DNA of 64,000 nucleotides from an uncultured bacterium (lineage in GTDB: Bacteria; Omnitrophota; Omnitrophia; Omnitrophales; Aquincolibacteriaceae). Shown piece by piece: positions 7,889 to 47,230 of this stretch. A program made the position numbers and the translations under genes. The stretch is from the NCBI GenBank assembly GCA_964508905.1, contig CAZDVO010000002.1:46330-110329 (forward strand). Reading direction: 5' to 3'. The notes under the pieces are model-generated. The model searched no databases, was not told where the DNA came from, and saw nothing but the letters and a program-made list of their open reading frames with translations. Each line of letters starts with the position of its first letter. Within the stretch, counting starts at the first letter, position 1.

Positions 7889-8023
7889 ATGAGGCGAAAG
7901 TATATCAAATACACGGGAAACGGGGAACGGGAAAGACCTCGCATCGCACGTTTTTGCGTTAAATCACGAGCGATCGCATCAATCCCCATGAAGCCTACGG
8001 CCTCATGAAAATCGCCAGATCCG

Positions 8024-16518: not shown

Positions 16519-16588
16519 ATCTCATATCCGTTTTTCTCCTTTGATCGTCCATGTTTTTAAAACTAAAACACCGGGATTGCCGTCCCAA

Positions 16589-16870
16589 AACGTCTTTTTA
16601 AAAAAGCTCTAAAACCGCCCGAAAGTTAACTGCTGTATGGGAATAAATCAAGGGGAGGAATGAAATAAATCCTTTGTAAATCTTTTGAAGGGCGAGGGAT
16701 ATCTCACCTCAGGCGATGCGGATAGAACTGGGCCCGGGTGTACGATTTTCATCATTAAGCAATTTATAGCAACATCACAATCCGTAAGACGAAAAGATAT
16801 ACGGCATTCGGCACAAGCAAACCGGCCGGCTCAGCGCAAAATATGCCAGCTGAGCAAGAAACAAAGGTCG
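16589..16870 (-). promoter_or_regulatory. Intergenic region between the two giant genes (leader/promoter of the 2,830-aa gene)
   Basis: ~350 bp of non-coding sequence between TAA (16871-16873) of the upstream giant ORF and the ATG at 16518. Contains the RBS and the AT-rich segment 16560-16700. Confidence 0.35.
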
Positions 16871-34800: not shown

Positions 34801-37800
34801 CAAGATCTTCAAGCAAGTCCCGCATGGCATCGCGCTGATCCGTCTTCGCCATTTTCCCTTCAGCGTTGAGCGCCGCTACTTTGGAAAGATACATCGCCTT
34901 ATACCGGGCATTCGAAAAACGCTCGCGCGTTCCTTTAAGCTGCTTGACGGCTTGTTCACGCTTCGCAACGGCCTGGGCCTTCTCGGCAAGATCAGCCGCC
35001 CGATCGGCCCATTTTTTCTCTTCCTGCTTGTTCTTGAAAACCGACGGCTTCTTGGCGTTAAACGCCGCCTGTTCCCTATCAAAATCAGACTTTTCCTTAG
35101 CGAACGCCTTTTCTTTGTCGGCAAGAACCTCATCCATCCCGGGAAGAAAGTTCTCAATGATCTTCGTCATGGATTCAAGGTCGGCCTCCGCGGTATCAAG
35201 AAAAACCCCGTTCGCATCCAGATAACGGAAATAGGGATTGGTAAGTTTCTTCAGCTCCGCCTGGTAATCCGGCTCGTTTAAGTGAGTTTCCACCTCCGCG
35301 CGAGCGATATCGATCGCAACAGGATGAAGATCGCTGCTTGAAAGTTTATTGAGTAACAGCTGAGCCTTGGCCCGGTTATCCTTCGTCGCAGACAACGCGA
35401 TCTTTTGCTCCAAAAGCTTGCCCGCGGTTCCGGCTAATTCAACCCATAGTTTTTCTTCGATCAGCGGCGCCAAACGCGGCTGCAACGCCGCCACACTATC
35501 CACATTCCCCTTTTGAACTTCGGCAAGGAGACGCACCGTTTCAGAGTCCACACCCAGTTTTGTCAGTTCCCCCACATTCCCCTGTTGAATTTCAGCAAGA
35601 ATACGATGCGCGCTGGCATCCACACGATGATCCCGCTCCGCCAGACGGATCGCGACTTTATGAGCGACCTCTTCGAGCATTTTTTGGGAAGTCTGAACAT
35701 TTCGTTGAAGACCCGCGATCTGTCCTTCAAGAAACCCAAGTTGTTCAATGATCTGCTGAAGCTGTTGCTGCGCACGATTCGTAACATCCCGGAGATAGCT
35801 TGCCGAGCGACCCTCAGCCGCAGCCTTGGAATATTCCGCCGCACTCTGCGTAAAGCTCAAGACGAGAACATCGAGACCGATCCCGCCGTTGACAACAAAC
35901 GAGGTGGCCCCGGGATTTTTCGCCGAAAAACCGAAACCCGCATTCAAATAAGCGGAAAGCCGGACCCATTCCTGATACACCTGGTCCAGTTTATCCGCCA
36001 AGGCTTTATAGCGAGACGCAACCAACAGGCCACTGTTCTTCAGCATTTCATGGGCAAAGGCGGCCTTTCGAAGCGATTGACCTTCCTCGTCCTTCGCGAC
36101 GGCAGCCTCGCCAATATAACTTTGATACACCGCATCCGCTTGATCGTTAAGTTCGGTCGTCCACTGAGAATGCCCCCTAGCGATCGCCTCGCGGAACTGC
36201 CGTCCGGTCACGTCAAAACCGACTTCACCGGCGAGCTTTTGATCGTTTTCCGCGAGCGCCGTCATTTGTCCCTGGATCGCATCGAGCGTCGTCAAGAGAT
36301 CCTTCTCGGCATCCTGCAATTTCTGCAGCTCACCTTTGGCAGACTCGATCTGATCGGTAAGCAGAAGATATTTATCCGCCGCGGAAATGGGATCCATATC
36401 ACGCTGGGATTCCCTGCTCCGGCTGTTCAAAAGCGCATCGGCCACTAGCACATCCACCTGCGCTTGCGCCTCGAGATTCTTGACATGCTGTTGCAAGGAG
36501 CGGAGTTCATAAAGCTTCGAGATCCCGTCATGCATCATATCTGCCAAACGATGCATCACATTCGTCTTAGCCGCTATCACATCCGCCTGATTTTTCTTAT
36601 CCAACTGATAGTCTCTCGAGGACCAGGCAGTTTCCAGCGCAAAGATATTCAGTTGCGCCGTCAAGCCACTCTCGGTCCCTAACGCCAGATTGACTTCAGG
36701 GATCGTAAGACTCCACCGCGCGCCCGGGACCGTGTCTAATTCAGCCTCGCGGCGTTGAATGTAGTATTTCATTTGTTCGAGCAGGGCCTTTGCGCCGGCA
36801 TCCGCCCTCTCGGCATAAAGTCCCAGTGAACGGATCTTTTCAAAATCCATCGTCTTGACAAATGTCTGATAATCAGAATTCGCCATCCATTTGGAAACAT
36901 CTTTGCCCATCAAGCCAACAAGGTGACGGGCATGATAATTACGCGCTTTAATGAGGGCGTCCTCTTCAATCTCTATATTCTTCAAGGAATCATCGAGTTG
37001 GCGTTTTAACACCGGGACAGAAGCGTGGTAGGCACCTAGAGCCTGCTGACGTTTTTGGAGAATACCGTGATAGCGAGCCTTGGTCTGACTGATCTTCGCA
37101 AGCCGCGCGTTGATCGAAGCGATCTCTTCGAGGCTAAAAACTTTTTGTTTGATCAGCTGGACAAAAGCAATCCGGCTATCTCGACGTTTTTGTCCTTCTT
37201 CCGCGGCCAACCGCTGATCCTGCTTGAGAATATCACTCCCCGTTCGCAGTCCGGCGCTCACACTACCCTCAAGAGCATTGTAACGATTCGAAGACGAAAC
37301 GGTCGTTGTCGTACTCGTTTCCGTGTAGGTGTAATCCTCTAATTGAGTAAGGCCTGAACCATCGCCAATATCAACCTCTCTCTCCCCCGTTTTTTCTTCC
37401 GTTGAGGTCGAAGTCGTTTTTGTCTGATTTTTGTGCGAAGTCAAAACAGCATTGAATCCAGCCCCGACAAAGGCATTGAACTTTTTATAGTCAGACGAAT
37501 ATTGCGCGGCAAGATCGGCATCGCGATCCAGGGCCAGCACGGACGGACGCTGATAGGTCTCATCAAAAAGCGCCATTCCGACATTAAAACCCGAGGGAAC
37601 TTCCGGCGTCACCTTCCCTTCGATCACCGCATCTTCAGTTTTCGTCGAGGCGCCCTTGCTCATCAAGGTCTCAAAATTTTCAGCCGCTTGATCCGCCGCT
37701 TCTTTAGCCGTCGTCTCACCGAGCCCGACGGTTCCCGAAGTAGATATATCAGCAAGAAGGGGCTCCATCGGCGCTATCGCGGCTTCTCCCGCAGGTTTGA

Positions 37801-40800
37801 AAGCATTCGACACGACTGCGGCGCCGGCAACCACGGCTGGACTTGTCGCGATAGCTACGGGCAAAGGTTTCGCCGCATCGTACAAACCCGTAAGCGAGAG
37901 GGTCGCGTCGGCATGCGGAGAGGCTATCGTTTGAGTTTTGGGGGCCAAATCAACAAGAAGGGGTTCAACATCGGCAAACTCAGCGGGAACATCCACCCCC
38001 ACCATTTTCCGGGCCATCACGTCAAGATCGTCCTCGACCATCTGCCGGTCTTTGTCATTCCGGATCGATTGACGGAGCCGAGTCGCGCGAGCGTGGAACT
38101 GAGCCCTGTCGTTATCGCTGCGAATAATGCCTTCCGTACGAACAACAAATTCATCAAAACCATCTAGAGCCGCGTCGCGTTCCTCTCCTACAGTCTCTGC
38201 CGCAACCTTCGAACGGATCTCTCCGACCAACCCCGCGGGCCCGGCAACGGAAGCTTTCACAGCATCCAAAGAACGAGACGCAATAGCCGGTTCAGGCTTT
38301 TCGGGTATGGCGATCTTGCCCTGAACGGGGGCGGTCTGGCCCGCCATCGCGGCGCTCAGGTCTTCAACCGGCGGAGGCGGAGCTCCCACGCCCGTTCCGG
38401 GAGCTGACAAAGCGGTTGCCACAACACCGACCAACTCATCTTCCTTGACTTCAGTCTTCTTTACTTCCTGAGGTTTCTCGACTTTCGAGGCCGCAACAAC
38501 GGCAGGAGTTTCCACGACTTGAGTTTGAATCTCCAGAACACCGCGCTCGCCACGGTCTAAAGCCGTGGGAAACGAGGTCGCTTCTTCGGGAACGGTCGCA
38601 ACAACAGGAGCCGTTACTACGGGCTCAGTCGCCGTTGGCACCGCTGCCACCGGAGATTTTGACGCCAACTTCAACGGCTTCACTGGCGCGGGCAACGCCG
38701 CTTTCACTTCCCGGTGGAAATAAGGACTTACCTCCCCCCGCTCCCGGATCAACTCAAATTTCGAGGGCGTTCTTCCCGTTTCCCGGTCCCAAGACGAATT
38801 CCATCCCTTCACAAAATACGCCTTCAAATGAGGGATTAAGGCTTCCGGAACCTCGATCTCATAGAGATGCGTCGTTCGGCCGGGAACCCACGTGAAATCC
38901 CCCGCCCGGTACTGCACAAAGATCCTGTAGGCCCCGTCCACCTTACGCCCCACATATGCCCCGGCATCGTACTGATCCGTAAAATTGATATCTTTCATGG
39001 CTTCGAGCAATCCTTCGCGATGCGCGCTCGAAAGCCCAAGCGACTCGACCCATTCTGTCACGGACTTCCATGCCTGCTTCTGTTCCGGGGTTTCCTCAAC
39101 CGCCTTGGAGGTTTCAGGTTTGGTCGCGATCGCGTGGATCAATTCCCGGGTCGCGACAGGCCCCGAACACACCCAGTTAAAAAGACCTTTCGCATTCCGG
39201 GAAACAAAACTCCCGAGGTCATGCGCGCTTTCTGCGACAAAACCCCGACGCAGTTCCGCCGGCACAGCCTGATGATCCTGATAAGCGCGATAATAGACTC
39301 CGATCGCATTCTCCAGACCATCGAGGTTCCGCGACAACCGCCGAAGATCTCCAAAAAGGGTATCGCGGAACCAGGAGTTGTGAGTATCCCGGATCACATT
39401 CTCCAGAGACATCCCCTGAGCAACAGCGTCCCGAATACCATCCAACACCAGGCCCTGGTCCCCAAGCGCCCGTTCATGGATCGAATTCCGGACAGCCACG
39501 CGCAATCCAGTTTCCGCAGCATCCAACGCCGCGATCTTCGCCTGAGCCGCCTCCGCCGCCGAAACGGGCTTCTCCGCAGCGGGAGTAGCTGTTTCAGAAG
39601 CCTTCGCCAGCGCCGCGAGGGCTGCCTCGTTTTCATTTTTTTCGATCAGCGCGATCTGTTCCGGAGTCCTGGCCTGCAGGACCGGCCCCATTTTTTGTTC
39701 AGCAGCTTCAAGACGTGCCTGGGTCTGGGCATTCATCGTTTGAACCATTTCAGACCCTGAGCTGACGCTTGCAGCAGCAACTCCAGCAAACATGCTGGCA
39801 GCGCTAAAAGCACCAAAGACCTTCGAGGTATCTTCACCCGGCTTATACGTATAAACAGCGGCTGTTTTACCAGTCAGTTTGGCATAGAGCGCATTCAACG
39901 CAAAGTAGGCCACAACGCACGCGGCCAAGATCAGCAAGATCGGCCAGGTGGCTGCGATCGCCGACACAAAGCTGAGTGAGCCAAAGGCCCATGTCCCGCC
40001 CACGATCCCGGCATAGATCACCGTGATCAAAGGCGCAACGATCATAGAAAGGATCATCGGCTCAAAAGAGGTCTGTTCCGTGCGATTGGTCAGCTTGCGG
40101 ATCGCCGACAGGAGCTTGGTGTCCTTCGCGTAAAGGTAGGTTTCTTTTTCCGCGTTTTTATCCGCAGCTTTTCCCTGCGCCCCATTCTGAAGCAGTGTAT
40201 TTCCAAAATAGAAGACGCTAAGCAACGCAGCAAGAGTCCCTAGCACAGCCCCCGCTGGCACACCGAGCGCGATGACCAAACCCGTCACAGCAACGATCCC
40301 GGCACCGATATAAGTACCCCTCTTGCCCGGTGTCCCGCCATAAAGTGTCTGGGCTTCCTGAAAGCTCGCCATATTTTGAGGAGAGGTGAACAGCTTTTTC
40401 TGAAGAACATTGCCGCCATACCAAACGCCGGCGAGAAGCGCCACGCCCAACACGCCAAAAACAAGAAGCGAGCCGGAAAGGATCGAGAAAAGAGCGACCG
40501 CCGCCCCCACAGCGATACCATTCTTAATGATCGCCGTTTTTTCAATGTTGATCTGTACGGGCTTAAAATGAACGGGCCGGCCGAGGATCGTGCCGAAAAA
40601 TTCCGGGAATGAGATCGACCACCAATCCGGCTGGATCGTCATCGTTTTTACTTCAACGGGGCGTCCCATCTTGGCGTAGTGGGCTTTCAGCGCCCGATGG
40701 AAGAAAAAGAGCCCTGCCGCAAAAACAACGGCGAGAACACCCATCACAAGAGCAAAAGCGGCGACCGACCCCAAAGCGACAACCGTTCCACCTGCCACGC

Positions 40801-43800
40801 CGACAAGGGCCAAGGCCCCCGGGATAGCAATGATCGCAAGCGAGGCCCCCAAAGCAACGGTCGTTACGTTAAAAAGAAGATTCAGCCCTGAAAAAATGAG
40901 ATGGCTGACAAGATCCACCGTATACTGTTCCAGCGGAGTTTCCCGGGCCGTATTCCACAACCCCTCATAGCTTTCTTTTAATTTCATCTTCGTAATATTG
41001 TCCGCCTGGATCCGCTTCAGCACGAACCTCTTGAAAAGCAGGATCCCGATAAAAATCGCGAACGCAGCCACAACGATCAGTCCAACTGTCGCCAGAGCTG
41101 CGACAGAAGCCGTCGTCACAGAACCCGTCCCGGCGAGCGCGACGATCTTCGTCAGAAAAGCCGGTACCCAAGCCTGGATCCCTGCCGCGATGCTACCGAC
41201 CGAAAGGGATTTGGTTAAAATGCCCGTAAAGATCCCGATCCAAACGGAAGAAATAGCCGTAAAACCGATCGCAATACGGGCGATCCTTCCAGGACGTAGC
41301 GGCGCACGAGGCGTAGGCATCTCTATTTTGGGGGCTTCCGAATCGACAAGGGCCTTTCTCGCGGCATTCGCGGCGGACGCCCTCACCTGACTTAAGGACA
41401 AGGCAAGCTCACGGGATACCCGGCTCCGGAAACCGCCTAATTTGGTCTGGTCGGACTTGGCAACAAGCCCGGATCCTAGAAAATATTCTTTCTGGATCTG
41501 ATCGGCCGTTGCGTTATAGTTGCTGCGCGCCACATCGACAGCATCCGGAAGCATCTTCCGCACGGCCGCCTCAGCCTGCGCCAAAAGAATGGCCTGAATG
41601 CGGGCATTCACAAATGCCTCGCCGGCAGCGTTCTTGGAACGGCTCAGACAAAGTTGCACGAAATCTTTCCTCACAGAATCACTCATCCCGGCAAGCAGTC
41701 CCTCTGGAAAAACAAGATCCAGGATGACAGCCGCAAGGGTCTCGTCATTCTTTGTTTCGATCGCTTCCTGCAAACGGGCAAGAGCTTCGCCCTCGTTTTT
41801 GATCTTGGAGGTTTTCCGTTCCTGGATATTCTTCAGGATCTGCTTTGCTTTCAGCCCTTTTGCTCCGGGAAGCAGATCCGTCCGCACAACGTGGAGCCAC
41901 GTCCTAAAGTTGGCGCTTTCGGTCAGCTCCCTTGCAGCGTTGACCGCTGCCGCCACCACCGCGTCATGGTCATCCCCTTCTTCGTCCATCGCATCAAAAG
42001 CTCCGATGCTCGCATAGGCCGCGTCATCCGTTTCTTCCTGCTGGGCGTCCGCCTGCATCTTTTCTGCCAGCATCGTCCTTTGTAATGCAAGAAGAGCACT
42101 TTCGATCCCGGTCAATCCGATCCCACGTTCAAAATTGCGCAGACGGCGAGGAGACCCGTCCTGGTTCGTCCGTCCTTCCCACCAGCGCTCCCACCAACCT
42201 TCCCCCTTCATACCCATTGCAAGTTCCGCCTCCCGGGCCAACTGCTCCGCGCTCGGATCCCAATCCTTGACCGAACCATCCGCATTCCTCGGAGCAGAGC
42301 GCAATCTGGCGATCAAGTCGAGCAGAGGCTTCCTGTTTTCTTCGGAAAGTTCACGGCCAAATTCTTCGAGGCTCGAAATGGCCAGATAAGTAAACACATG
42401 GCCAAAAGTCCCGCCGCGGCCGACACGGCCGATCAGCTGATCCATGATGATCTTCAGGGTATGGGGACGGGTCAGGTGCAGCGTCAAGCCTTTGATCAAA
42501 TTGCCATCGGCATCAATGATCTTTTCAAAGATCTCAACATTGATACCACGTGTCAGCGTCGCGTCGATCAAAAGAATATGCCCCTTACGACCCGCCCGCT
42601 CCAGCATCGCCTTGCGCACGCTGGGAGCATCCGAATCGCGGTAGATCTCAACGGTGACTTTCAACCCTTGCTCGCTGGCCGCTTTTTCAATAGCGTCCTT
42701 GATCCCGGCTTGATCTTTTGCGTCTGCGTCAACAAGATGGAAGCCTTCGACCTGGGAAGCGCTCAAAGCATTAGCCACAAGAGCCTTGTTCCTCTGCGCG
42801 ATCTCGCTTGCGTTCCTTTCCTCAACAGTCGCAAGGCCTTCTTCCCCGCCAAAAACTTTCGGCGGCGCGATCTCCTTCGTATAGTGGAAGAGGCCATCAA
42901 CGTTGTGCGTTTTCATTTTTCTTCCGCGCGCGGTCAGCTTGGCGTCCAACTCATCGCCTCCGGTCGCGGTCATCAGCACATTCCCGGCAAAACACGACAA
43001 CCCCATCATCTGAAGCATGCTAAGCCGGCTCGTCGTCCGCGATCCCTGAAGACGCGTAAGCCCCGCTTTAGCGCGCAACGCATTCTGTAAATCTCCCAAA
43101 TGCGTCCCTGCCATAGCATGCTCGTTACTGTCAAACGGGATCACATCCTCTTTCCCGTGAACCTGGCCCTTGATATAGAAACGGAAAACCCTTCTTCCCT
43201 GATACTCCGCGCCCGTTTCCGGATTATTTTTATCCGTGTAACATTCATGCGCGATCAGTTCCGCCTGGATCATCGCGATCCAGCGGTCGCGGCTGACAAA
43301 ACGAGGATCGATCGTCCCCGCTTTTACAAGTTCGTCATACCGCTTATTGGCCAGCGCTAACCCCGTGAAGAAGTTCAATTCGACTTTCGCATGCTGGTCA
43401 TTGATCACGTAGTTTTTGGTATTCACGTCCACCGACGGTTTGGAAGAATTCGCACGCAAGCCACGGGCCAGATCAGAAGCGTGACTTTCAGCCAGCAAGA
43501 TCGCATTCGCCTGAGCAATGACTCCGGCGGAAACAATCGCTTTGCTCGGATCCGTCACAATGTACTGGTCCGCTTCATCCAGGACGCTTGCAACCGTTCC
43601 CCGATTGGCCGCAGCATTGGCAAAACGGCGGCCGGCCCTGCCCTGGAAATAGAATTGATAGCCGTCGTAGCGAGAATAAACGACTTTAGCGTTCTTGATG
43701 ACGTAATCGATGGGATCTTCGTACGAATTATCGAATTTTCCAGTATGAGACGAAGCGACTTCCACAAGTTTCTCCTCATCTCCGGATTTGACCGCCTTCC

Positions 43801-46800
43801 ACGCGTGAGCAACGCCTTTCACATCAACCGTAAGCGTCACGAACATCCCGAGCTTGGCATCCCAGATCCAAGCGAATTTGTTTCCCGATTCGTCCGTAGT
43901 CAGATACCCCACGGTATGGGCCCCGGGAGCTTTCGAAAAAGCCGCCTGACATTCAATGGCGCCGGCAACAGCGTTCACATCACTATTCGTCTCAACAAAA
44001 GCCTTCCGGTCCGGTTCCGATGCAACCCAGGCATAAACCGTCGCGATGCCGATGATCGTTTTACCGGCGCCGGTTGCGGCATAGTTCAGGATATCTTCGA
44101 TCGCCGCCTTCTCGCCTTTTGGCGCACTCTTGATCTTGTCGCTATTGCCTTTCAATATTTCGATATTTGCCAAAACAGCTTCAACCTGTCCGAGGGTCGG
44201 ATTCTTGGATTTAGCTTCCAGCTTCGCAAGGCGTTCCGCTTCAGCCTGGCTCTTGCCTTCCGTCAGATATTTTTTAACCAATTGAGCCTGCTCATATTCC
44301 AAAGTCGCCGTTTGAATTCCAACGTAGATCTGTTCAACCAGCTTATTCCCTTTAACAAGAGGATGATTTTGATCGATCACCTGGTTCAGATCCCTGACAT
44401 CGCGGGCAACGGGTTTTGCGGATTCTTCGGTGGTGGGCGCAACTGCGGCGGGAGCTGTGACGGTCTGGCGAGCGGCATCGCGCTCCTGGATATTGCGGGC
44501 GACGATCTCAAGCCCTTCCTTTTTAAGCGCCATCGTATAGGTATTGACAGGGATATTGACACCCTGTTGTCGATATCCATCGATCAAAGCCAACTGAGCC
44601 GTGATCTTCGCTGAACTAAAACGAACCAGAATGTCCCGGCGAAGTTTCGCCTGATCTTCCCCCTCGAGGACCGTACCCAAAGCCTGAACTCTCGCATCGA
44701 GCGTCGCAAACGTTCCAGTTGCAGCATCAAATCCAAATCTCAAGAAACGGATATCCCCGGCAAAACCGCGTTTTTCTAACGCGTCGATCTTCGCCGCTAA
44801 ATCAGAACTTTTAAGAACTCGTTTATAAAATCCCTCGGCAACGGAAAGCTTCTCCGCAGGGGTCGAGAGGATCCGCGGAAGGTTCGCCGTAATTTCGGCA
44901 GGAATTCCATACTTCGTCGTCAAAAGTTGGGCGTTCTCCGTAGCCCGCTTCGCTTCAAGCTCCCTTTGAAATGCGTCGGCGGCAATGGGCCCCGCCTCAA
45001 CCGCCACACCGCCAGGCAGCTGCAGGGCAGAAGTCCCCTCCACCGGAGCTACCACGCGCGATTCAGAGCGGGCAGCCTTCTTGACCGAATCGGGAACCTG
45101 GTCGGCATCCATCATATAGAAGGAAAGGACCTGATCCGTGGCCGGCATTGAGATCGACTTCAACGTGCTACGCAACGACGCCGCGACTTCCGATGTCTTG
45201 ACCCCATTCCCCTTGGCATCCAGCGAGAAGGCCAGATACGGGGCATCCCTCTTCGAGCCATCCTCCATCGGGATCATGAGAACCGTGTGTCCCCCAACCT
45301 TCACGACCCGGGAAGGTTTGAACTTTTTGACAAAAACATCAAATTGAGCGCGGTAATCCGCGGGCAGCGTAGCCACCGCGGCCTGCAGCTCCTGATAAGC
45401 CTTCCCTTTATCCGCAGCTGACAGGATCGAGATCGCCGCGACGAGCGGGAAATAAAGCATGTCGTCGCCTTTAAAGGCCGAGAAGTCTACCTTCCGGCCG
45501 AGCATACGCCACGCCGCCAACTGGAACCGCGGATCGTTCAGCGTCACAGCCTTGGGCTGCAGGAACGCCTCGGAAAGAACTTTCTCGATCGGAAGCGGCG
45601 TTTCGCGCAGCGAGGCGTCATAAAGCGCGTTTTCCCTCTTTTTATCGATCGCCTTGGTGATGCGAGGGGCGACTACTATATAAGAAAGCCCCTTCTCCTG
45701 AAGATACTTCTCAATCCCAGGCGTATGGAAACCGCCTGTGACGATGGCGGATAACTTCTGCCCGGTGGCAAGGGTTTTCTCGACCGCTCGCTCGATCAGC
45801 ACCCGGTCGCGTTCGAGAGCGGCTTTATAAAAGCGCTCCACACGCGGCAGGTCCTGATCGAGGGTCTTCACTTGGGACGGCAATCCGTAGGTGAAGTGGT
45901 ATTGCTTCATGAGCGGTGCGAGAAAACTTACGAACGTTTCGGACTTGAACTCGTCCTGGTAGGTGTAATAGAACTCGGCGTCCTGCTTGGTCAGGCTGAA
46001 ATCGAACATCTTGCAATAGATGTCATGGATACGAAGGATATGGTCCAGCCGGATCTGCTCCTGCGTCATGAAAAGCTTGGCCTTGACGGTCTTTTCGAGA
46101 AATTCGATCTCGTCAAAGATCGAGACGTCGATCGCATCATAAAGCTTCATGTACTGGATATACGCCATGACGTTCGCATGCTTGACCGCGAGGTCTTCCC
46201 CTCCTGACTGGGCCACGCTGATGCCGCGGATCTCCTGCTCCAGATAACCGTAATAAGCAGCTCGCTTCATTTTCTTCATACGGAAGTGGACGGTATTCGT
46301 CAAGAACCGCGCCAGCTTCTCGCGCGGAAGGAAGCGCTTCAGATCATTGACAAGGGCCTCGGTGTCCTGATCGGCTTTATCAAAATCGACTTTCCTCTCA
46401 AGATCAACCAACTCGAGAAGCGAGTGCATGCCCGGATATTCATCCAAGGCGATCTGCTGTTTGCGGCCAAGGTCGACGAGATAACGGACATAGGCGACCA
46501 TTTCCGGGCCACCCTCCTGGAATGAAGCCCGGCGGCGGATCAGATCCCGCATTTCTTCAGAGAACACGAACCGTCCGACATCCTCCATGGCTTTTTTGAG
46601 TTCGACGAGAACCGCTTCGTCGCGATCCTTGAACTCAAGAGCTTCCACATACGCAGTACGGTTCTCTTCGTAGAGGTCCCGGTCTTCAACGCCATAAAGC
46701 ATCATAACCGGCTTATCCACAACCGCCAGATATTCCGGCCCCGTCAAACGGCCTTCACGGAGGAAGTAATCGGCCACGTTGCGGCGGGCTTCTTTGTTCG

Positions 46801-47230
46801 GGAAAAAAGAGAAAAGATCCGTGTTCAGTTCACCGGAAGCGCCCTCAAGGCTCACGAGCCCCAGCTGATGTTTTTCCGAAAAGTAGCGGAGGATATTGGC
46901 GATATTGCGTTGGGCTTCCTCGTTGATATGCGCATCCTGGACATGCAGAATGATCTGGTCCCCCGTTCCCTTGAATGTGGTCTTGACCGTACCGTAGCTG
47001 TCGGGAAGATCAGGGCGATCGATCAGCGCAAGAGGCGCCTGAGGGGCAACTGTTTCAAATGAGGAAAGGGCCTCCGGCTTGGGCGCTGCGGCATAGGCTT
47101 TATTAATACCGCCATCCCAGACGATCGAGGTAAAGGTGAACACACAGACCGTGAGAAATGCTACGGTCCTAAGCCATGGTTTGAAGCTGTGTGTTTGCCA
47201 ACTGATCATCGGATTGCCGTCCTCTCTCAC
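16871..47230 (-). CDS. Giant multidomain membrane protein, 10,119 aa (30.4 kb): N-terminal anchor plus conserved module, SecA-like DEAD ATPase, three TM blocks, coiled-coil/low-complexity regions, DUF218 domain, C-terminal unclassified domain
   Basis: A single uninterrupted ORF in the supplied track. The track start is GTG at 47230; an ATG with GAGAGGA RBS 10 nt upstream lies at 47209 (MISWQTHSFKPWLRTVAFLTVCVFTFTSIVW, a TM anchor). Stop is TAA at 16871. Domain motifs are detailed in the sub-features. Such size plus a SecA-like domain plus many TM segments corresponds to the reported features of Omnitrophota giant genes. Confidence 0.9.
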   Translation of the reverse strand: MREDGNPMISWQTHSFKPWLRTVAFLTVCVFTFTSIVWDGGINKAYAAAPKPEALSSFETVAPQAPLALIDRPDLPDSYGTVKTTFKGTGDQIILHVQDAHINEEAQRNIANILRYFSEKHQLGLVSLEGASGELNTDLFSFFPNKEARRNVADYFLREGRLTGPEYLAVVDKPVMMLYGVEDRDLYEENRTAYVEALEFKDRDEAVLVELKKAMEDVGRFVFSEEMRDLIRRRASFQEGGPEMVAYVRYLVDLGRKQQIALDEYPGMHSLLELVDLERKVDFDKADQDTEALVNDLKRFLPREKLARFLTNTVHFRMKKMKRAAYYGYLEQEIRGISVAQSGGEDLAVKHANVMAYIQYMKLYDAIDVSIFDEIEFLEKTVKAKLFMTQEQIRLDHILRIHDIYCKMFDFSLTKQDAEFYYTYQDEFKSETFVSFLAPLMKQYHFTYGLPSQVKTLDQDLPRVERFYKAALERDRVLIERAVEKTLATGQKLSAIVTGGFHTPGIEKYLQEKGLSYIVVAPRITKAIDKKRENALYDASLRETPLPIEKVLSEAFLQPKAVTLNDPRFQLAAWRMLGRKVDFSAFKGDDMLYFPLVAAISILSAADKGKAYQELQAAVATLPADYRAQFDVFVKKFKPSRVVKVGGHTVLMIPMEDGSKRDAPYLAFSLDAKGNGVKTSEVAASLRSTLKSISMPATDQVLSFYMMDADQVPDSVKKAARSESRVVAPVEGTSALQLPGGVAVEAGPIAADAFQRELEAKRATENAQLLTTKYGIPAEITANLPRILSTPAEKLSVAEGFYKRVLKSSDLAAKIDALEKRGFAGDIRFLRFGFDAATGTFATLDARVQALGTVLEGEDQAKLRRDILVRFSSAKITAQLALIDGYRQQGVNIPVNTYTMALKKEGLEIVARNIQERDAARQTVTAPAAVAPTTEESAKPVARDVRDLNQVIDQNHPLVKGNKLVEQIYVGIQTATLEYEQAQLVKKYLTEGKSQAEAERLAKLEAKSKNPTLGQVEAVLANIEILKGNSDKIKSAPKGEKAAIEDILNYAATGAGKTIIGIATVYAWVASEPDRKAFVETNSDVNAVAGAIECQAAFSKAPGAHTVGYLTTDESGNKFAWIWDAKLGMFVTLTVDVKGVAHAWKAVKSGDEEKLVEVASSHTGKFDNSYEDPIDYVIKNAKVVYSRYDGYQFYFQGRAGRRFANAAANRGTVASVLDEADQYIVTDPSKAIVSAGVIAQANAILLAESHASDLARGLRANSSKPSVDVNTKNYVINDQHAKVELNFFTGLALANKRYDELVKAGTIDPRFVSRDRWIAMIQAELIAHECYTDKNNPETGAEYQGRRVFRFYIKGQVHGKEDVIPFDSNEHAMAGTHLGDLQNALRAKAGLTRLQGSRTTSRLSMLQMMGLSCFAGNVLMTATGGDELDAKLTARGRKMKTHNVDGLFHYTKEIAPPKVFGGEEGLATVEERNASEIAQRNKALVANALSASQVEGFHLVDADAKDQAGIKDAIEKAASEQGLKVTVEIYRDSDAPSVRKAMLERAGRKGHILLIDATLTRGINVEIFEKIIDADGNLIKGLTLHLTRPHTLKIIMDQLIGRVGRGGTFGHVFTYLAISSLEEFGRELSEENRKPLLDLIARLRSAPRNADGSVKDWDPSAEQLAREAELAMGMKGEGWWERWWEGRTNQDGSPRRLRNFERGIGLTGIESALLALQRTMLAEKMQADAQQEETDDAAYASIGAFDAMDEEGDDHDAVVAAAVNAARELTESANFRTWLHVVRTDLLPGAKGLKAKQILKNIQERKTSKIKNEGEALARLQEAIETKNDETLAAVILDLVFPEGLLAGMSDSVRKDFVQLCLSRSKNAAGEAFVNARIQAILLAQAEAAVRKMLPDAVDVARSNYNATADQIQKEYFLGSGLVAKSDQTKLGGFRSRVSRELALSLSQVRASAANAARKALVDSEAPKIEMPTPRAPLRPGRIARIAIGFTAISSVWIGIFTGILTKSLSVGSIAAGIQAWVPAFLTKIVALAGTGSVTTASVAALATVGLIVVAAFAIFIGILLFKRFVLKRIQADNITKMKLKESYEGLWNTARETPLEQYTVDLVSHLIFSGLNLLFNVTTVALGASLAIIAIPGALALVGVAGGTVVALGSVAAFALVMGVLAVVFAAGLFFFHRALKAHYAKMGRPVEVKTMTIQPDWWSISFPEFFGTILGRPVHFKPVQINIEKTAIIKNGIAVGAAVALFSILSGSLLVFGVLGVALLAGVWYGGNVLQKKLFTSPQNMASFQEAQTLYGGTPGKRGTYIGAGIVAVTGLVIALGVPAGAVLGTLAALLSVFYFGNTLLQNGAQGKAADKNAEKETYLYAKDTKLLSAIRKLTNRTEQTSFEPMILSMIVAPLITVIYAGIVGGTWAFGSLSFVSAIAATWPILLILAACVVAYFALNALYAKLTGKTAAVYTYKPGEDTSKVFGAFSAASMFAGVAAASVSSGSEMVQTMNAQTQARLEAAEQKMGPVLQARTPEQIALIEKNENEAALAALAKASETATPAAEKPVSAAEAAQAKIAALDAAETGLRVAVRNSIHERALGDQGLVLDGIRDAVAQGMSLENVIRDTHNSWFRDTLFGDLRRLSRNLDGLENAIGVYYRAYQDHQAVPAELRRGFVAESAHDLGSFVSRNAKGLFNWVCSGPVATRELIHAIATKPETSKAVEETPEQKQAWKSVTEWVESLGLSSAHREGLLEAMKDINFTDQYDAGAYVGRKVDGAYRIFVQYRAGDFTWVPGRTTHLYEIEVPEALIPHLKAYFVKGWNSSWDRETGRTPSKFELIRERGEVSPYFHREVKAALPAPVKPLKLASKSPVAAVPTATEPVVTAPVVATVPEEATSFPTALDRGERGVLEIQTQVVETPAVVAASKVEKPQEVKKTEVKEDELVGVVATALSAPGTGVGAPPPPVEDLSAAMAGQTAPVQGKIAIPEKPEPAIASRSLDAVKASVAGPAGLVGEIRSKVAAETVGEERDAALDGFDEFVVRTEGIIRSDNDRAQFHARATRLRQSIRNDKDRQMVEDDLDVMARKMVGVDVPAEFADVEPLLVDLAPKTQTIASPHADATLSLTGLYDAAKPLPVAIATSPAVVAGAAVVSNAFKPAGEAAIAPMEPLLADISTSGTVGLGETTAKEAADQAAENFETLMSKGASTKTEDAVIEGKVTPEVPSGFNVGMALFDETYQRPSVLALDRDADLAAQYSSDYKKFNAFVGAGFNAVLTSHKNQTKTTSTSTEEKTGEREVDIGDGSGLTQLEDYTYTETSTTTTVSSSNRYNALEGSVSAGLRTGSDILKQDQRLAAEEGQKRRDSRIAFVQLIKQKVFSLEEIASINARLAKISQTKARYHGILQKRQQALGAYHASVPVLKRQLDDSLKNIEIEEDALIKARNYHARHLVGLMGKDVSKWMANSDYQTFVKTMDFEKIRSLGLYAERADAGAKALLEQMKYYIQRREAELDTVPGARWSLTIPEVNLALGTESGLTAQLNIFALETAWSSRDYQLDKKNQADVIAAKTNVMHRLADMMHDGISKLYELRSLQQHVKNLEAQAQVDVLVADALLNSRSRESQRDMDPISAADKYLLLTDQIESAKGELQKLQDAEKDLLTTLDAIQGQMTALAENDQKLAGEVGFDVTGRQFREAIARGHSQWTTELNDQADAVYQSYIGEAAVAKDEEGQSLRKAAFAHEMLKNSGLLVASRYKALADKLDQVYQEWVRLSAYLNAGFGFSAKNPGATSFVVNGGIGLDVLVLSFTQSAAEYSKAAAEGRSASYLRDVTNRAQQQLQQIIEQLGFLEGQIAGLQRNVQTSQKMLEEVAHKVAIRLAERDHRVDASAHRILAEIQQGNVGELTKLGVDSETVRLLAEVQKGNVDSVAALQPRLAPLIEEKLWVELAGTAGKLLEQKIALSATKDNRAKAQLLLNKLSSSDLHPVAIDIARAEVETHLNEPDYQAELKKLTNPYFRYLDANGVFLDTAEADLESMTKIIENFLPGMDEVLADKEKAFAKEKSDFDREQAAFNAKKPSVFKNKQEEKKWADRAADLAEKAQAVAKREQAVKQLKGTRERFSNARYKAMYLSKVAALNAEGKMAKTDQRDAMRDLLEDLVGATEGYLTSEYLLEKMFNLWSYESRDSWYEGIRQLLDLIGPEGTSVLGYTGRITAIHSAFLNVEKAWSLNKEPLNIRGGFSYQKSGGTSSGKSTTLGFGGIFSHLKRLFAGPSDDARRNAAFLLAEGSRGIMDRAKAQVKENQDTLALRGKLGVLDSRIKLYEDIKQQFVEWRDRYEPTPGALRSIVSRLRSVLGNDRTTDEIYALNVEQLDARIRADANSIRELEASLLSRGFSPRQMRSGAFYTASANKQNESAALIRDQLSEIGRESYSAQIASLNTLVGTMLKQSTFGTSPYTSAASLAQSPFYRDFGVVNQFLNAPSGLPGSDGNRFAVVNFTTSSILGTPKKTFMLMMQYKESEAGTDKKGSELAVSEQTRGVVAAISHMRVMNRFKKILAAKTLAPQGLEDILGTARVEHGVKGESLSRLSRIESMETGNAAIEAIGKLWSEVKGLSSDEEKRQKMIEGIDQLLRIENASIKDDLKALKKTAGEADISFEVVEGVDLSKAGNLEALQSDEATRANLRTLLNKEFVKMLGQDRLGSFVKFGFSHAPYQSDLSEGEPYLGVGATYTLYDSHLSAIKKFWSNREGIEKLFAKQANQDLRNELEDFLADREDLEKEVAKRRESLESAAESYHLALQRSRQFGYVDAEIDLAFRYMNELDAYESAVYAYWNASRKLIESAAANGIKLDYTAGKKDMVELLADAIPSWLEDETEGDDIEAKYLASEKPVLPVIKGTGTRSATFAIDEGLEKETPTKNARTNQALDKLIAALGSKVPVTGLLSPEEKAGLELEQANARKLLTRIFERVAGRYGRKDVPAWIEEIAAAYKDLEDNKAFDRTGFMEVGLGEETWGNLFGQCFMIGPEGSKLLQDSGVDFNKLAFALFVNDLGHISMTRGEPGDRARITESIARDLPDAMKALERYRHRPQDSYSLRSPVEGAEALTLVLYRAFGGESVKDKNGNPLGFDQILNDAEHRRAFVRVAPEFNLNNVFSGVVGHEINKDTWVTGWQDAAKYLSISLGRYDKGTGEVIPREIPVDDPQYMAYIMAQNIANILAHPRPVLPAELSANATPQEREAYNAAKAKVSDHDKLMEQSAYLTARFAFKISQSEHLRPKEEDIKDTVYLRLKALAGQKQEDYGVDPDTKRLVLIKDVRSWLSNPPQEMSVAEHSRLMKALPEILKSTRSGGIKDPVTGGVATLESIQIRMKAVREAVMEGLFNSMAVSYVNDVLYGAGHDAGENRDKWLAKSIEDTIDPKTGEVIKGRLSLTEDRLRLENELRGKPELVKSISELAHKPEGYKATPREKYNDDRNIRGIVSGLAMEILGETGDEIDPAIKQYMGAIQKEIDLLGEELTRVSDEKKPEIQGRLDAKKAELQRYEDANAKRVADYKLFNSLPEDKKIQHLVELWQIMSDLRPSATALLGTLSNDNPNDVSMLRLWAASVQGDIQPKYQPGAGGFEDAEHWQKWQDTPKKERLERMQKRLHIMKVLKDRFAEKGITIKLKDSKYTAVPERGLGVGSLMSSAMEYLGEIDPAEKIDKAIEALQKDIKALEAEAERAVPETSVQEEPAKVSEPVVPLKSEPVKTSAWDKFTDILAVASSFAGNLVFGLNAYGDTVPALATQGLVGASAKAVEAAVSNKPNLPQSGETRGLKGESRVPSAQLREKRAELANLQQIRNKIKADQDLFLGKTGDKRYMSVNGQIAEGRIARIVGLAVIMKDIRFAVEQLVGPLNDGSPSDMGMLRSMATFIQGDIQSQYMHAAGGFDNEDDWAETEKKTPEKRQELLMGRLEVASRMNDALKNLGVVFDLKGERSAEMLRKGEDIGFLLSVSQALISGDVLLGEMFDEKGNLKDSDKVWMLFAVMRTPQAKTMLDNYLTETNRDEYLAKSLVSKIGDRTSLAKELAVFLGDSGRIDRSKTIAENLKEADLILSRREKIYKVSRADGMSPEISVKSDDLGAEDEALEDLKAKSGLGEALTPEIYYSLVSKVLDSRKVAGQSLKGRFPVAFWMLPSEKRQLMDKIAEISEIPYALNDAKTWVAGFLLTPGGIDLKNTQPVIKEVSRRVEIEMFLQAANMLYRTQALNPGELAAFSRVVMLEEQKILREQNERNAATEQPVSEAVRKTQEEEKLKPMLRTGHLLKLYGLAEAALNGKTINGNPYEGANDRITLVKDQMNKYGRMLNGDAWKPVDEEWVKANHKGWATEKIFGKISRILEAQELGAPHFEMTPESTPDYLYKWIKDAAVMDAVIYQSQGRFPPNEVLDALIQSERDGSDVIPVYKTETSLIQNLPQWSRLEKGRNNYLLQKYGSQQFWDADLRVLGEVTGADGRPLTVELSDTSRVPVDLNDVRWVRSAYRTVYRTDIGDDDLGIPAAKEVLRTLWFVEKIARLDHQLKNITFDGKNVAVSGEAISAIRDEFMIGSEKARNAFRRAVYGASKDAALLDKTEVQAQFKVYMNAWAEEFIRMKAELQTLSVKENAASREDLEMSRKNIQSERKTRVAEYAKKYAGKNYEPVHKDAMKEVETSWAEISSKVKGLTPFRSTEKAVVASQMIRNGYTAREILLMDHYILPELLKGHGLEGKDIDRLKDSDLKDKNLKAKDLKAKLRYRSREILERAEAGLLFAVNRNAGGVKTTLETLDTEALAGTVKYQLKDFEGVQTNENVIREKFSELNVYSDDVLKREREIKRIAESVLDRDVSTGSLSAWFAAASNLKTAVLVSGAKDPDMEKILYEADSLWNLGLAASPQRVQDKSSMDALAVINGTIGWIFDRGTDSGPYAATPTGSKRDAATPAGSNRATLESEPTREKMLKALDAAAFDDAREKIERRIEEMLKSGALTPLDLKELNGLALQRYQSLVDVNAKAKKDGLQSKDLPKPHEVSPLTILLVLDMENPDPVKRIGLFELLFPKVKEEGKDLLRADAQVNGHYAGASRRSDELLIDKYAPVPDSAMTHLISGLRIPAFQVHDYRFPGYGVSGVMLSHLFNFDGQESPVSKALGIKDSKAPLWNISWIAFVLAAFFAMKNYLKRRFQSPVYGRQNGLKRKKTEIVERQDALLSKREELIKEQQKRRNAVSRSEARSELSKMTDAEIAAELVTVEHQFKALEQDLASVKQAMTAAKAVPGVGSATPVTTARYDVAHSPQTLRTIEKGSKLSLMRLATYEFLRDFLAFLMIGWSLAALSPYAVAAVPIFVALYVVWHVPLFKQWAYNPIAYLTAGWKPLTFLLAMAGFVAAVAKPAILTAIGGFLVAQPAFIVAMVVWIAMITLSHIDKSGGVMYDTPTEKEEKDFSDKKVNEVMNRARLIFDMPGYADYRKEKNRIIKLQENAKWLDLAGDSEGAGKVLKQVESIEAAILNGRVETGMYGDLTAAEKAKKAKEVKAVAETIVDLKADPTLQYKDINGYMSGHMPKGKKHIMFEAWRLDSREINETVEAMVRQLIGNNFKSQRSILLANGPEVKGSYAETKGAKEPGGGTMEQFFQKMQARMELYWELLEYTDKADKSVHPGYERLQVIYRGAGRKPVANVLLMGAFTGYGEDGLAGRKLGQISNRGVDINKLHYQVTIFGRTILLGSSYVLEQVETRGTDKHGNPLPANVLKLHLPFDNIPFFNGMAKPGEGNAFVPYSQSLRDDPQMLGQYLPAVKTDEVTGKDIFEPQVLHTTTLDGGNYVSAGIMLFLIRMLSRRPDVGMAQLNTGYETDHSTAFWEMGAKIHAAGFWTIIFNSMVAGLVRMFGKYTILTMVAAEMVRPRPGLPFGAYFTRVLVFSGFLFRQLNRLLEESSIRLSLEANGDPKLLARLQAKGPLNGLLALEVLKSRALFKGLVATDQAILAKILPGDPEAALLARARVSPVARDMLLERAGYLQSIVDDNNAVRQAAFIVQAGFADIDAVKKEAERLKAENENLKPEEWLELNKKLLLPAEGGATLDVPHLIEAASKRVSQRDMLMAITEALRAVASKDNKDLFSEAARQDPNLLKDAKFKATHKRMLRDRAGFVEEDFALGASNVPALFAVLQANGEVNNAILASLGIKRTAAGAVDFSGVDRKKLADAVTKILNDKDQFKVFYVKFLAQDSAIADRLAPEVKGLLERAKAQDAVVGLRDIVAEENAIKQAEDMAAAGYTDLQGVKAELTKVDKATPALNDSEWEALNRSLMAALYDGYIEKRQTSSLDRLLEPAMAKTVTELENILKEKDPKTLMKLLSRAGVTNKTELRKKIAEEKGKVEGFKAGNLKIEDFEMVLLNRKLLGVLCGAKKDDAKVATISIFTQEDLEDAMHAFSGLPSKYNGEDEMVTYTPTDTYVQAEYAAEHKEELKDQKEELERKHANNPRAAHREVKGRPFDADAIRVLPKEIWDDVAETGAPLPGVKTALALVAGREGIIDDKLPSMPAQNPQSDKWQIINDEPTDELYERGVFALTPQTDFFDSFPRDGLNIGHKWFATLAIMALAAFVPGFIGVVGVYAAMVQTLVVLSLLIGMPFLGVLFNGLVAPVGFKVDFLRPLTVWNWFRVKGRFLEQAFYDMAIIAAEKVISGANYVNRVLNVFDWYKRKVRRHDFIKYGEVGTADPAPAGIDLSKAPNFSKNLQDPYVRRGLMVGFSFLAVLFGIMFKVGLLSLVAVISVWGVGLVGAAVGFLVALFVFIIPGVKADIVDGKLLKSIAGSKAPNMQDAKLKFFEVFGANELYKSKDLGLMKKFGLMLRFYGYAVVKTAPASLRLVKDFSFFKNRNLFQKNNPKPLFELEWYRSYMNHLILNSVALIAVCAFLPFLVQFVPLFWLMLFSVMALFFVAAPLVNWATGLVIEQKEGDVGSARRAVKIALGLFGVAAIVFTIFLFNSVAMQMALSVFFEKVMANSFFVAASGNLVEGMRGPLSPLAQGNAPLLMFVQTFLLGGTVLAIILSLIFAVWWFTFYAPAAKLKAEAQKVAKPENALAAKKEKVTLRGWIKDRITAVKAFGVNIKTFVASVRTEKKKADQEKIKRKWAGINLPAWGIGFMVVFQKIEAAKREKILKNLLGSIALPVLVLVPVTAVGHVLGWSVVAAIVGFVIVAGLVIGSKQSAKYIRMITRIAAIGGIGFSIGGWIGFAIASGVAGILMLIARVVPESVAPGKESSVPLHGIGSTGEGNVKKSETSEPKMVQPRSESRTPGKDVQLNARSEMRLAETVAELDPKVLRGYYDRMFTETEAQGSISEAAIMAHKNYFDEKGAQRYGTTVPVLMRVPQGAVQNNLWKMTERIIQTAQLTDADVVRTGELHSTIFAFVTTYNGVIDMAPYQSAEIQDVIRGVTGRIMPFRVTYKGLTIAKDGTVTAQGYVDEPSNLGGLRSGLHQAFTDNPHAEDKSSGHIIHAKLFRLQHSVTGEKFKVLMDEVRANRDTEFGTVAVNSVELMRADLKPTQKPGEETLSLIQTFPLGWSELQDNAPQTILSAIGTRRSESREIAAVRSVMVPKMQQLVDDLSKGDDLQTKPADGFLVLGNPDLRTFTGFAATWKALKTQLPIVVTGGRGRGYLPLRKAAMEHYGLNETSDVVALWQTEADIMAYILTAEGVPAGMITKEARARNTEANLRNSAEILREKIPASVENPRIYMVTSPMLTARVKATAQAFWWQTGSSTENFQVAALRVYEPNVEKMADEQLMLDAIYLAGLPEDISGYPHVNRGNEIKGLGDMLARAVKNPASAGRELAQVPAEGETLTKAIREANAKMLVIHPKASALLAELERLSDYTPLPVATETEAPAKTETKRSELRPAVTAEAARQAAIEDELKKLGTPAPEMAGQQKPALSPVAQRMVAGIASSQAMRFDLARTVEHVKALGIENEFTQVISNFAAEPKMQAALGLDADVIVGAEAPKYVFQDGFNQAGLESFAKSLKSTDNIYLSIAVKNEADEASAKAFLTQYGFDMTKCAVVIASIEEAFDAGLKQAGRNLSRATATRISGASQLDAKTYGELLAGSLGLEIVVVTDREIAGIARTLTALQVVEAAIEAARSIAIAA
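17980..18440 (-). other. DUF218 (YdcF/ElyC/SanA-like) domain near C-terminus of the 10,119-aa protein
   Basis: GFLVLGNPDLRTFTGFAATWKALKTQLPIVVTGGRGRG...ETSDVVALWQTEADIMAYILTAEGVPAGMITKEARARNTEANLRNSAEILREKIP...RIYMVTSPMLTARVKATAQAF. The same family is present in the 2,830-aa paralogue. Confidence 0.5.
19550..21560 (-). other. Transmembrane block 3 (C-terminal multi-helix region)
   Basis: WFATLAIMALAAFVPGFIGVVGVYAAMVQTLVVLSLLIGMPFLGVLFNGLV...MVGFSFLAVLFGIMFKVGLLSLVAVISVWGVGLVGAAVGFLVALFVFIIPGV...ALPVLVLVPVTAVGHVLGWSVVAAIVGFVIVAGLVIG...IGGIGFSIGGWIGFAIASGVAGILMLIARV. Confidence 0.6.
24990..25800 (-). other. Transmembrane block 2
   Basis: LWNISWIAFVLAAFFAMKNYL, then after a ~110-aa charged spacer FLAFLMIGWSLAALSPYAVAAVPIFVALYVVWHVPLF...LTFLLAMAGFVAAVAKPAILTAIGGFLVAQPAFIVAMVVWIAMITL. 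Confidence 0.55.
26415..26474 (-). repeat. In-frame 30-nt tandem duplication inside giant ORF
   Basis: acttccggccggcgtggccgcatcacgttt followed by acttccggtcggcgtggccgcataaggtcc. Encodes AATPTGSKRD / AATPAGSNRA in ...PYAATPTGSKRDAATPAGSNRATLE. Confidence 0.7.
39780..41300 (-). other. Transmembrane block 1 (about 12-14 predicted hydrophobic helices)
   Basis: IARIAIGFTAISSVWIGIFTGIL...LIVVAAFAIFIGILLF...LAIIAIPGALALVGVAGGTVVALGSVAAFALVMGVLAVVFAAGLFFF...ILLILAACVVAYFALNAL: long runs of hydrophobic residues spaced by short loops. Confidence 0.6.
42300..44200 (-). other. SecA-like DEAD-box motor ATPase domain (NBD1/NBD2-like) embedded in giant protein
   Basis: Walker A: NYAATGAGKTIIGIATVYAWVA (SecA: [20 protein letters not shown]), DNA ~44041-44080. 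DEAD: ASVLDEADQYIVTDPSKAIVSAG (SecA: [20 protein letters not shown]). MTGT region: LMTATGGDELD. NBD2: ILLIDATLTRGINVEI (SecA: VTIATNMAGRGTDI). GLTLHLTRPHTLKIIMDQLIGRVGRGGTFGHVFTYL (SecA: [36 protein letters not shown]), DNA ~42410-42490. Confidence 0.75.
45550..47230 (-). other. N-terminal conserved module (paralogous to 14900-16518)
   Basis: See alignment in the 14900-16518 feature. The GTxH-like (ILHVQDAH) and GGFHTPG motifs are faintly reminiscent of the TraB/GumN/ChaN family. Confidence 0.55.

Follow-up and report, generated by a model that had tools for sequence, protein, structure and literature searches.

A highly divergent SecA-like motor module near the N-terminus of a giant Omnitrophota membrane protein

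What would a Sec-type motor do inside a giant membrane protein? The question is raised by a 64,000-nucleotide stretch of DNA (the window) from an uncultured Omnitrophota bacterium (assembly GCA_964508905.1, contig CAZDVO010000002.1, positions 46,330 to 110,329), in which one uninterrupted open reading frame (ORF; 16871..47230, minus strand) encodes a protein of 10,119 residues counted from a GTG codon at 47230. An initial annotation had noticed a SecA-like ATPase about 1,000 residues into this protein, in the interval 42300-44200 (residues 1011-1644; residue numbers count from the GTG throughout). Our data indicate that residues ~1040-1625 are very probably homologous to the SecA DEAD motor, though highly divergent from it, and comprise nucleotide-binding domain 1 (NBD1), an insertion where SecA has its preprotein cross-linking domain (PPXD), and NBD2. 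We further propose, tentatively and at somewhat less than even odds, that this module is a tethered cytoplasmic motor that assists the export of the protein's own body in cis. The explanation that joins the SecA-type identity to this cis export-assist mechanism is the best overall, and we assign it a probability of roughly 0.5.

All the motif strings quoted in the initial annotation were present in this single ORF, and the Walker A motif lies in the region of residue 1054, where the motor had been placed (Table 1). VLDEADQYIV is present, with DEAD at residues 1218-1221 (43568-43579) followed by QYIVTDPSKAIVSAG, and hhalign aligned the NBD1 blocks to SecA 102-139 (TGAGKT, in the Walker A/motif Ia block) and 171-227 (DEAD and QYIVTDPSKAIVSAG). 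D1218 and E1219 correspond to E. coli D209 and E210, and Y1185 and F1193 in KVVYSRYDGYQFYFQ align to SecA Y176 and F184. NBD1 also contains an extra beta-rich insertion of ~50 residues, variable in length, between motifs Ia and Ib. In the PPXD-position insertion, the blocks YVINDQHAKVELN and DLQNALRAKAGL match SecA FSVDEKSRQVNLT and GLHQAVEAKEGV, and in the full-length hhalign alignment the insertion is collinear with SecA 224-375. In NBD2, the motif VI string IIMDQLIGRVGRGGTFG was found within residues 1590-1608, IDATLTRGINV aligns to SecA 501-513 and DQLIGRVGRGG, the counterpart of the canonical motif VI QLRGRxGRQG, to 568-579, and Q1598, R1602 and R1605 correspond to E. coli Q570, R574 and R577.

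Table 1. Positions of the SecA-like module, its motifs and the adjoining parts of the giant protein in the window.
Feature	Window position	Strand	Residues	Remarks
SecA-like module	42356..44113	minus	~1040-1625	NBD1, PPXD-position insertion and NBD2; from hhalign, and Pfam on orthologues
Walker A, TGAGKT	44057..44074	minus	1053-1058	K1057 = E. coli K108; invariant in 4/4 orthologues
KVVYSRYDGYQFYFQ	43643..43687	minus	1182-1196	Counterpart of SecA block DITYGTNNEFGFDYL
Walker B and SecA-type extension, DEADQYIVTDPSKAIVSAG	43523..43579	minus	1218-1236	SecA match DEVDSILIDEARTPLIISG
PPXD-position insertion	43016..43546	minus	1229-1405	~175 residues, between Walker B and motif III
Motif III, MTATG	42959..42973	minus	1420-1424	SecA MTGTA; invariant
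Motif V, IDATLTRGINV	42536..42568	minus	1555-1565	R1561 = E. coli R509; invariant in 4/4 orthologues
Motif VI, HTLKIIMDQLIGRVGRGGT	42407..42463	minus	1590-1608	SecA match HESRRIDNQLRGRSGRQGD
Linker	41276..42355	minus	1626-1985	360 residues; low-confidence prediction of helices; not significantly similar to the helical scaffold or wing of SecA
Polytopic membrane domain	39761..41275	minus	1986-2490	About five helical hairpins and a last signal-peptide-like segment
Signal-peptide-like segment	39752..39838	minus	2465-2493	Last hydrophobic segment; short hydrophobic core
N-terminal domain	45371..47113	minus	40-620	Hydrophobic segment at residues 20-38 before it

Profile comparison supports the relationship to SecA. 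With hhalign, a four-sequence orthologue profile (A3) matched E. coli SecA, whether or not a second canonical SecA was included, at a probability of 96% (E 7e-10 to 9e-9) over ~380 collinear columns that cover SecA 171-592, with ~20-22% identity to canonical SecA in the aligned part. The controls, E. coli UvrB, RhlE (DEAD-box), DinG (XPD-like) and RapA (SNF2), reached at most 8% over 11-91 columns. Compared piecewise with SecA, NBD2 gave E 7.8e-5 and the Walker A/motif Ia block gave E 7e-4 (SecA 102-133). More importantly, the alignment draws on SecA-specific blocks outside the shared helicase motifs: VVYSRYDGYQFYF in the window against ITYGTNNEFGFDYL in SecA, DEADQYIVTDPSKAIVSAG against DEVDSILIDEARTPLIISG, DLQNALRAKAGL against GLHQAVEAKEGV, RAGRKGHILLIDATLTRGINV against a 21-residue SecA block, and HTLKIIMDQLIGRVGRGG against HESRRIDNQLRGRSGRQG. 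SecA_DEAD was the best Pfam family in three of the four orthologues (P0001, 26.9 bits; L004, 23.8 bits; L003, 17.2 bits), of which only P0001 exceeds the gathering score of 24.6 bits, and P-loop_SecA was the best NBD2 match in orthologues, below its threshold (13-15 bits against 27). When the window segment was compared with PDB sequences by phmmer, 10 of the 11 chains matched were SecA (E 0.06-0.2, over motifs V-VI); the exception was LsrB (E 0.14), which is unrelated.

The same searches bear on the possibility that the module is a generic superfamily 2 (SF2) helicase or SNF2-type remodeller whose likeness to SecA arose by chance. The Pfam families ResIII, DEAD and Helicase_C do match, weakly and below threshold (E 0.008-0.17), and the best local Foldseek matches of a low-confidence structural model were DEAD-box RecA-like domains. 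However, SecA families outrank these in every orthologue, the hhalign values of 96% and at most 8% separate SecA from the helicase controls, and the blocks present (a TYGTNNEFGFDYL-like, a DEVDSILIDEARTPLIISG-like and a GLHQAVEAKEGV-like block and one further 17-residue block) are specific to SecA. The Foldseek result, for its part, comes from a model with a predicted local distance difference test score (pLDDT) of 42.6 and includes no match at E<=0.001, and is uninformative. We consider a chance likeness extremely improbable, and the choice of SecA over a generic SF2 or SNF2 family, made by eye in the initial annotation, is borne out.

Is the motor still active? Across four orthologues, 45-63% identical to one another, 29 of 30 core-motif positions are invariant, compared with 38.9% of all ungapped columns; the sole exception is in the DEAD box, which reads DEVD in P0001 and keeps D, E and the final D. 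K1057, D1218, E1219, R1561, Q1598, R1602 and R1605 do not vary in any orthologue that spans them, so that the Walker A lysine, the Walker B Asp-Glu pair and the arginines of motifs V and VI are conserved among the homologues, as the SecA reading of the initial annotation required for Walker B and the arginine finger. Such invariance at this level of overall identity points to selection on ATP hydrolysis, and it argues for an active ATPase. A catalytically dead relic, kept as a structural spacer, would be consistent with the extreme divergence of the module, with a window copy that matches no Pfam family, with the failure of a search of 1.84 billion cluster representatives to return a canonical SecA at E<=0.001, and with substitutions at the positions aligned to E. 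coli D217, D512 and R566. The invariance of the core motifs speaks against it, and we regard a dead relic as very unlikely. D217 and R566 form the Gate1 salt bridge, whose opening has to precede ATPase activation in E. coli (10.1101/2021.01.18.427065); they align to T1226 and I1594, substituted relative to E. coli and invariant within the family. The neighbouring D1227 and K1593 might be a shifted equivalent of Gate1.

Past NBD2, the similarity to SecA ends. The Pfam model SecA_SW matched no orthologue and SEC-C matched nowhere in the giant protein; a canonical SecA used as a control (P0003) scored 140 bits for SecA_PP_bind, 229 bits for SecA_SW and 41 bits for SEC-C. A comparison of residues 1626-1900 with SecA gave E 0.6 and revealed no remnant of the scaffold or wing, and the only scaffold trace came from a forced alignment, in which RNFE matched RNFD without significance; the linker reads RNFERGIGL at residues 1698-1706. 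These sequence searches thus detect no helical scaffold or two-helix finger, no helical wing and no C-terminal zinc tail, and the module is not a canonical SecA. The initial annotation was therefore right that the C-terminal scaffold elements are not obvious. It had added that SecYEG-dependent function may be lost; absence of the C-domain does not on its own mean that SecYEG binding is gone, because E. coli SecA-N68, which has no C-domain, retains high-affinity binding to SecYEG, still interacts with signal peptides and is a constitutive ATPase (PMC5603524).

The linker that follows NBD2 contains a conserved Trp-rich motif, MKGEGWWERWWEG (residues 1674-1686; 42173-42211), which reads MKGEGWxEKWW in orthologues and might act as a membrane-interface or docking element. 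The membrane domain begins 360 residues after the motor. Its counterparts in L003 and L004 are 41-43% identical, and motifs in the loops are conserved among them; identity per 100 residues (39-57%) is close to that of the motor (33-58%). An hhalign comparison with E. coli SecY found no similarity (E 0.3), and a search of the PDB returned only compositional matches to designed repeat proteins. Hydropathy places a weak hydrophobic segment at residues 20-38 and the next dense hydrophobic cluster at residues 1986-2490; between them lies only one weak segment, residues 1831-1849, charged with Asp and Glu. When the membrane domain is read as a series of helical hairpins, each of three orthologues has 37 Lys and Arg residues in the loops on the motor side and 4-5 in those on the opposite side. 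Under the positive-inside rule, this asymmetry suggests that the motor is cytoplasmic and that the chain exits the cytoplasm after residue ~2490. The signal-peptide-like segment at the end of the domain terminates in AxA-type sequences in L003 (AQSAQA/AP) and L004 (AQSAWA/AQ) and in AAASVSS/GS in the window; cleavage there by signal peptidase could release the body.

The relatives of the module are few. A word-indexed search of 5.8 billion proteins returned a partial orthologue, P0001 (62% identity), and one canonical SecA at E 9.2. The only matches of an exhaustive HMMER search of 1.84 billion cluster representatives were P0001 and P0002, a 2,691-residue N-terminal fragment; at E<=0.001 the search returned neither a canonical SecA nor a SecA-like domain of any other giant protein. 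Scans of GTDB genomes and JGI metagenomes added only L003/L010 (the gene encoding P0002) and L004, which brings the SecA-like subfamily to about four public members, too few for a deep alignment. Every homologue of the giant protein belongs to a metagenome-assembled genome of Candidatus Omnitrophota.

One of these relatives, L003, differs from the protein of the window in the part that follows the signal-like segment. The giant proteins of the window and L003 are 46% identical over window residues 1-2583 (39482-47230; 7022-21922 in L003). Past residue 2583 no similarity to L003, which is known to residue 4967, was detectable; the break falls ~90 residues after the signal-like segment. On this alignment, a conserved head (residues 1-2583: N-terminal domain, motor, membrane domain and signal-like segment) is joined to different bodies. 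Motor and membrane domain occur together in the window, L003/L010 and L004, that is, at every motor locus that reaches far enough, and a hidden Markov model search of the loci with the N-terminal domain only (L007, L008, L013 and L014) found neither. This joint presence and absence indicates that the two are inherited as one cassette.

How might such a head work? We propose a model in which the motor would face the cytoplasm, tethered permanently by the ~10-helix domain, which would take the place of the lipid- and SecY-binding elements of SecA. The motor would hydrolyse ATP while clamping unfolded polypeptide, and its likely substrate would be the protein's own signal-like segment (residues 2465-2493) together with the multi-thousand-residue body behind it. 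The body would be threaded, or held for export, in cis, via SecYEG or the adjacent membrane domain, and residues 1-2583 would be a unit that exports and anchors exchangeable cargo regions attached to it. A self-export role has already been proposed for this class of proteins by West-Roberts et al. (10.1101/2023.11.21.568195).

A different partner for the motor has to be considered here. Motor and ~10-helix domain together might form an autonomous, SecYEG-independent translocon that exports the body or another protein such as the 2,854-residue product of the neighbouring gene. Such a translocon would fit the strict co-inheritance of motor and membrane domain, the conservation of the membrane domain at about the level of the motor, with conserved cytoplasmic loop motifs, and the missing scaffold and two-helix finger, which are the normal SecY contacts and whose absence would suit another partner. 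Yet the membrane domain resembles neither SecY nor any solved structure, its hairpins have very short outer turns that suit an anchor as well as a pore, and SecA-N68 retains SecYEG binding in E. coli, which makes SecYEG the simplest partner. We think an independent translocon quite unlikely. More speculative still is the idea that the head is an autonomous, modular cis-export device that needs neither the housekeeping SecA nor, possibly, SecYEG to thread interchangeable bodies across the inner membrane; we hold this to be decidedly improbable.

Several observations weigh against export assistance by a SecA-type motor as we propose it, some of them against the identity and others against the mechanism. 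The window's own segment gave no relevant Pfam or NCBIfam match even at E<=10, and the SecA assignment rests on orthologue profiles. SecA_PP_bind was undetected in any family member, and the insertion taken alone (residues 1229-1410) aligned to SecA 224-321 at E 0.0039 and a probability of 8.6%; since this is not significant, the PPXD assignment leans mainly on collinearity. AlphaFold2, run with two and then three sequences, reached pLDDT values of 39.5 and 42.6 and provided no structural confirmation. As to the mechanism, the topology comes from a hydropathy and charge heuristic rather than a trained predictor, and residues 20-38 resemble a signal peptide or anchor; if the N-terminus were inside, the motor would lie outside the cytoplasm. 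Because SecA-N68 is unable to catalyse translocation (PMC5603524) and no two-helix finger or scaffold was detected here, a canonical SecA push is unlikely, unless residues 1626-1985 are an unrecognisable substitute. Finally, the body of L008 is 48% identical to residues 2602-4967 of L003 and is accompanied by no motor/membrane cassette.

L008 (JGI Ga0496409_0003099, 7859-20780) deserves a closer look. It is syntenic with the window, as is L009, and the N-terminal domain is present in both. In L008 an in-frame stop after residue 973 is followed by a 623-residue ORF with one hydrophobic helix and then by a scaffold gap of 10 N. The locus implies that this body type can exist without a motor in cis, though the stop and the gap make its integrity uncertain; it may naturally lack the cassette, have decayed into a pseudogene or reflect an assembly error.

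Together with the inability of SecA-N68 to translocate, L008 lends some weight to a motor without translocation drive, namely a cytoplasmic ATP-driven holdase, unfoldase or conformational regulator that acts on the giant protein or its partners. The catalytic residues would then be intact with the translocation parts missing, as is the case, and the replacement of the Gate1 pair by the invariant T1226 and I1594 suggests another mode of regulation. On the other hand, the module sits just upstream of the membrane domain and the signal-like segment, with the border between head and body right after them, a position that favours a membrane or export role. A role confined to holding or remodelling is, in our estimate, unlikely, and we retain export assistance in cis as the preferred, if tentative, mechanism.

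Fusions of this kind have been reported. West-Roberts et al. described giant Omnitrophota proteins with divergent SecA_DEAD domains that have no scaffold and wing; these domains form a long-branched clade apart from the canonical SecA of the same genomes and lie beside transmembrane regions (10.1101/2023.11.21.568195). In addition, a 20-protein PF07517 architecture cluster is known among long Omnitrophota proteins (10.64898/2026.06.07.730766). Matched by architecture, the protein studied here resembles the class of West-Roberts et al.: it is a giant multi-transmembrane Omnitrophota protein with a SecA_DEAD motor, an insertion at the preprotein-binding position, no scaffold or wing, and adjacent transmembrane regions. 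It differs in size (10.1 thousand residues, against a focus on proteins of more than 30 thousand) and in the position of the module, which follows a Tiki/ChaN-like domain close to the N-terminus, whereas the published modules lie towards the C-terminus. Unlike the Archaeovorin and Dockerin types, its Pfam content is limited to DUF218 and a 2H-like domain. It is thus a new and unusually divergent example of an already reported fusion and not a new kind of system. The extreme divergence, the N-terminal position of the module, its obligate pairing with the membrane domain and signal-like segment, and the mosaic of head and body appear to be specific to this locus.

Compared with canonical SecA (E. 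coli b0098; PDB 2FSI, 1M6N, 3DIN), the module has the NBD1 motifs, the post-Walker B insertion and motifs III, V and VI in the same order. Canonical SecA is a soluble protein of ~100 kDa, whereas the module is embedded in a membrane protein. SecA2 proteins of Gram-positive bacteria and mycobacteria are SecA paralogues that occur beside the housekeeping SecA, are trimmed relative to SecA1 and serve dedicated large or unusual substrates. Mycobacterial SecA2 has no wing domain; SecA2 keeps the helical scaffold, is standalone and soluble, and is recognised by all SecA Pfam models. The module has diverged much further than SecA2 and forms one chain with its putative substrate. In composition it resembles E. 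coli SecA-N68 (PDB 5K9T; NBD1, PPXD and NBD2, no C-domain), with an insertion at the PPXD position. N68, however, is engineered; the module is natural, and the functions it lacks may be provided by the 360-residue linker and the membrane domain to which it is covalently joined.

The head also contains the N-terminal domain, the most conserved part of the protein (73-87% identity to P0002 over residues 101-600, and 62% over the first 100 residues). A search with this domain found 41 homologues, mostly standalone Omnitrophota proteins of at most 1,072 residues, some of them syntenic; none of the 41 carries the motor. The domain sequences HVQDAH and VTGGFHTPG presumably fit GxxH-type sites. Two distant members gave borderline or weak matches to Cofac_haem_bdg of the Tiki/ChaN superfamily (27.6 bits against a cut-off of 27.7). 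At L013 and L014 (JGI Ga0558116_01763 and Ga0247727_10000210), which belong to more distant Omnitrophota, an N-terminal-domain protein of 691 or 972 residues stands at the position of the giant gene and is followed by uncharacterised ORFs of 1,160 or 1,336 residues; lepA, lepB, rpe and genes for M16, SPOR, YajQ and patatin proteins are neighbours in common with the window. This arrangement suggests that a smaller ancestral locus expanded into the giant gene.

The real start of the giant gene is probably the ATG at 47209 (residue 8), which would give a protein of 10,112 residues. This start is favoured because a Shine-Dalgarno-like GAGAGGA lies ~10 nucleotides upstream of it (window 47207-47230) and because the orthologue P0002 begins at the equivalent Met (MISWQTHSF...). 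By hydropathy the protein contains ~25-30 hydrophobic helices, with further clusters beyond the head at residues ~7146-7413 and 8573-9234. Its Pfam domains are confined to the C-terminal end (residues 9349-9737; window 18020-19186), where DUF218 scored 47.7 bits and AKAP7_NLS (2H phosphoesterase-like) scored 23.2 bits, slightly below threshold. No internal repeats were found in the giant protein, and no second SecA-like module was found in it or in its 2,854-residue neighbour. A P-loop-like GGTSSGKS at residues 4230-4237 (34520-34543) has no recognisable NTPase domain around it and may be a chance match.

The flanking genes are ordinary chromosomal ones: lepA, lepB, rpe, and genes for an M16 peptidase, a thiolase, an acyl-CoA ligase-type enzyme and NAD synthase. 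Neither a canonical secA nor secY was found within the window. The gene directly downstream of the giant gene (8024-16588, minus strand) encodes the 2,854-residue protein, which has an N-terminal hydrophobic segment, several candidate transmembrane helices and HEAT repeats. It also contains a complete cytidylate kinase domain (170 bits) and, like the giant protein, DUF218, and is an odd fusion of a nucleotide kinase with a large membrane-associated protein.

The SecA-like modules that they contain are the only obvious clue to how polypeptides of 10,000 to more than 100,000 residues are inserted or exported. Since the module is too divergent to be detected by Pfam in a single sequence, PF07517-based surveys probably undercount such proteins. 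The locus offers a compact and tractable example for the self-export idea, with a motor cut down to the N68 core and natural comparisons with and without it. If the head were in fact autonomous, it would represent a new coupling of a Sec-type ATPase to its substrate.

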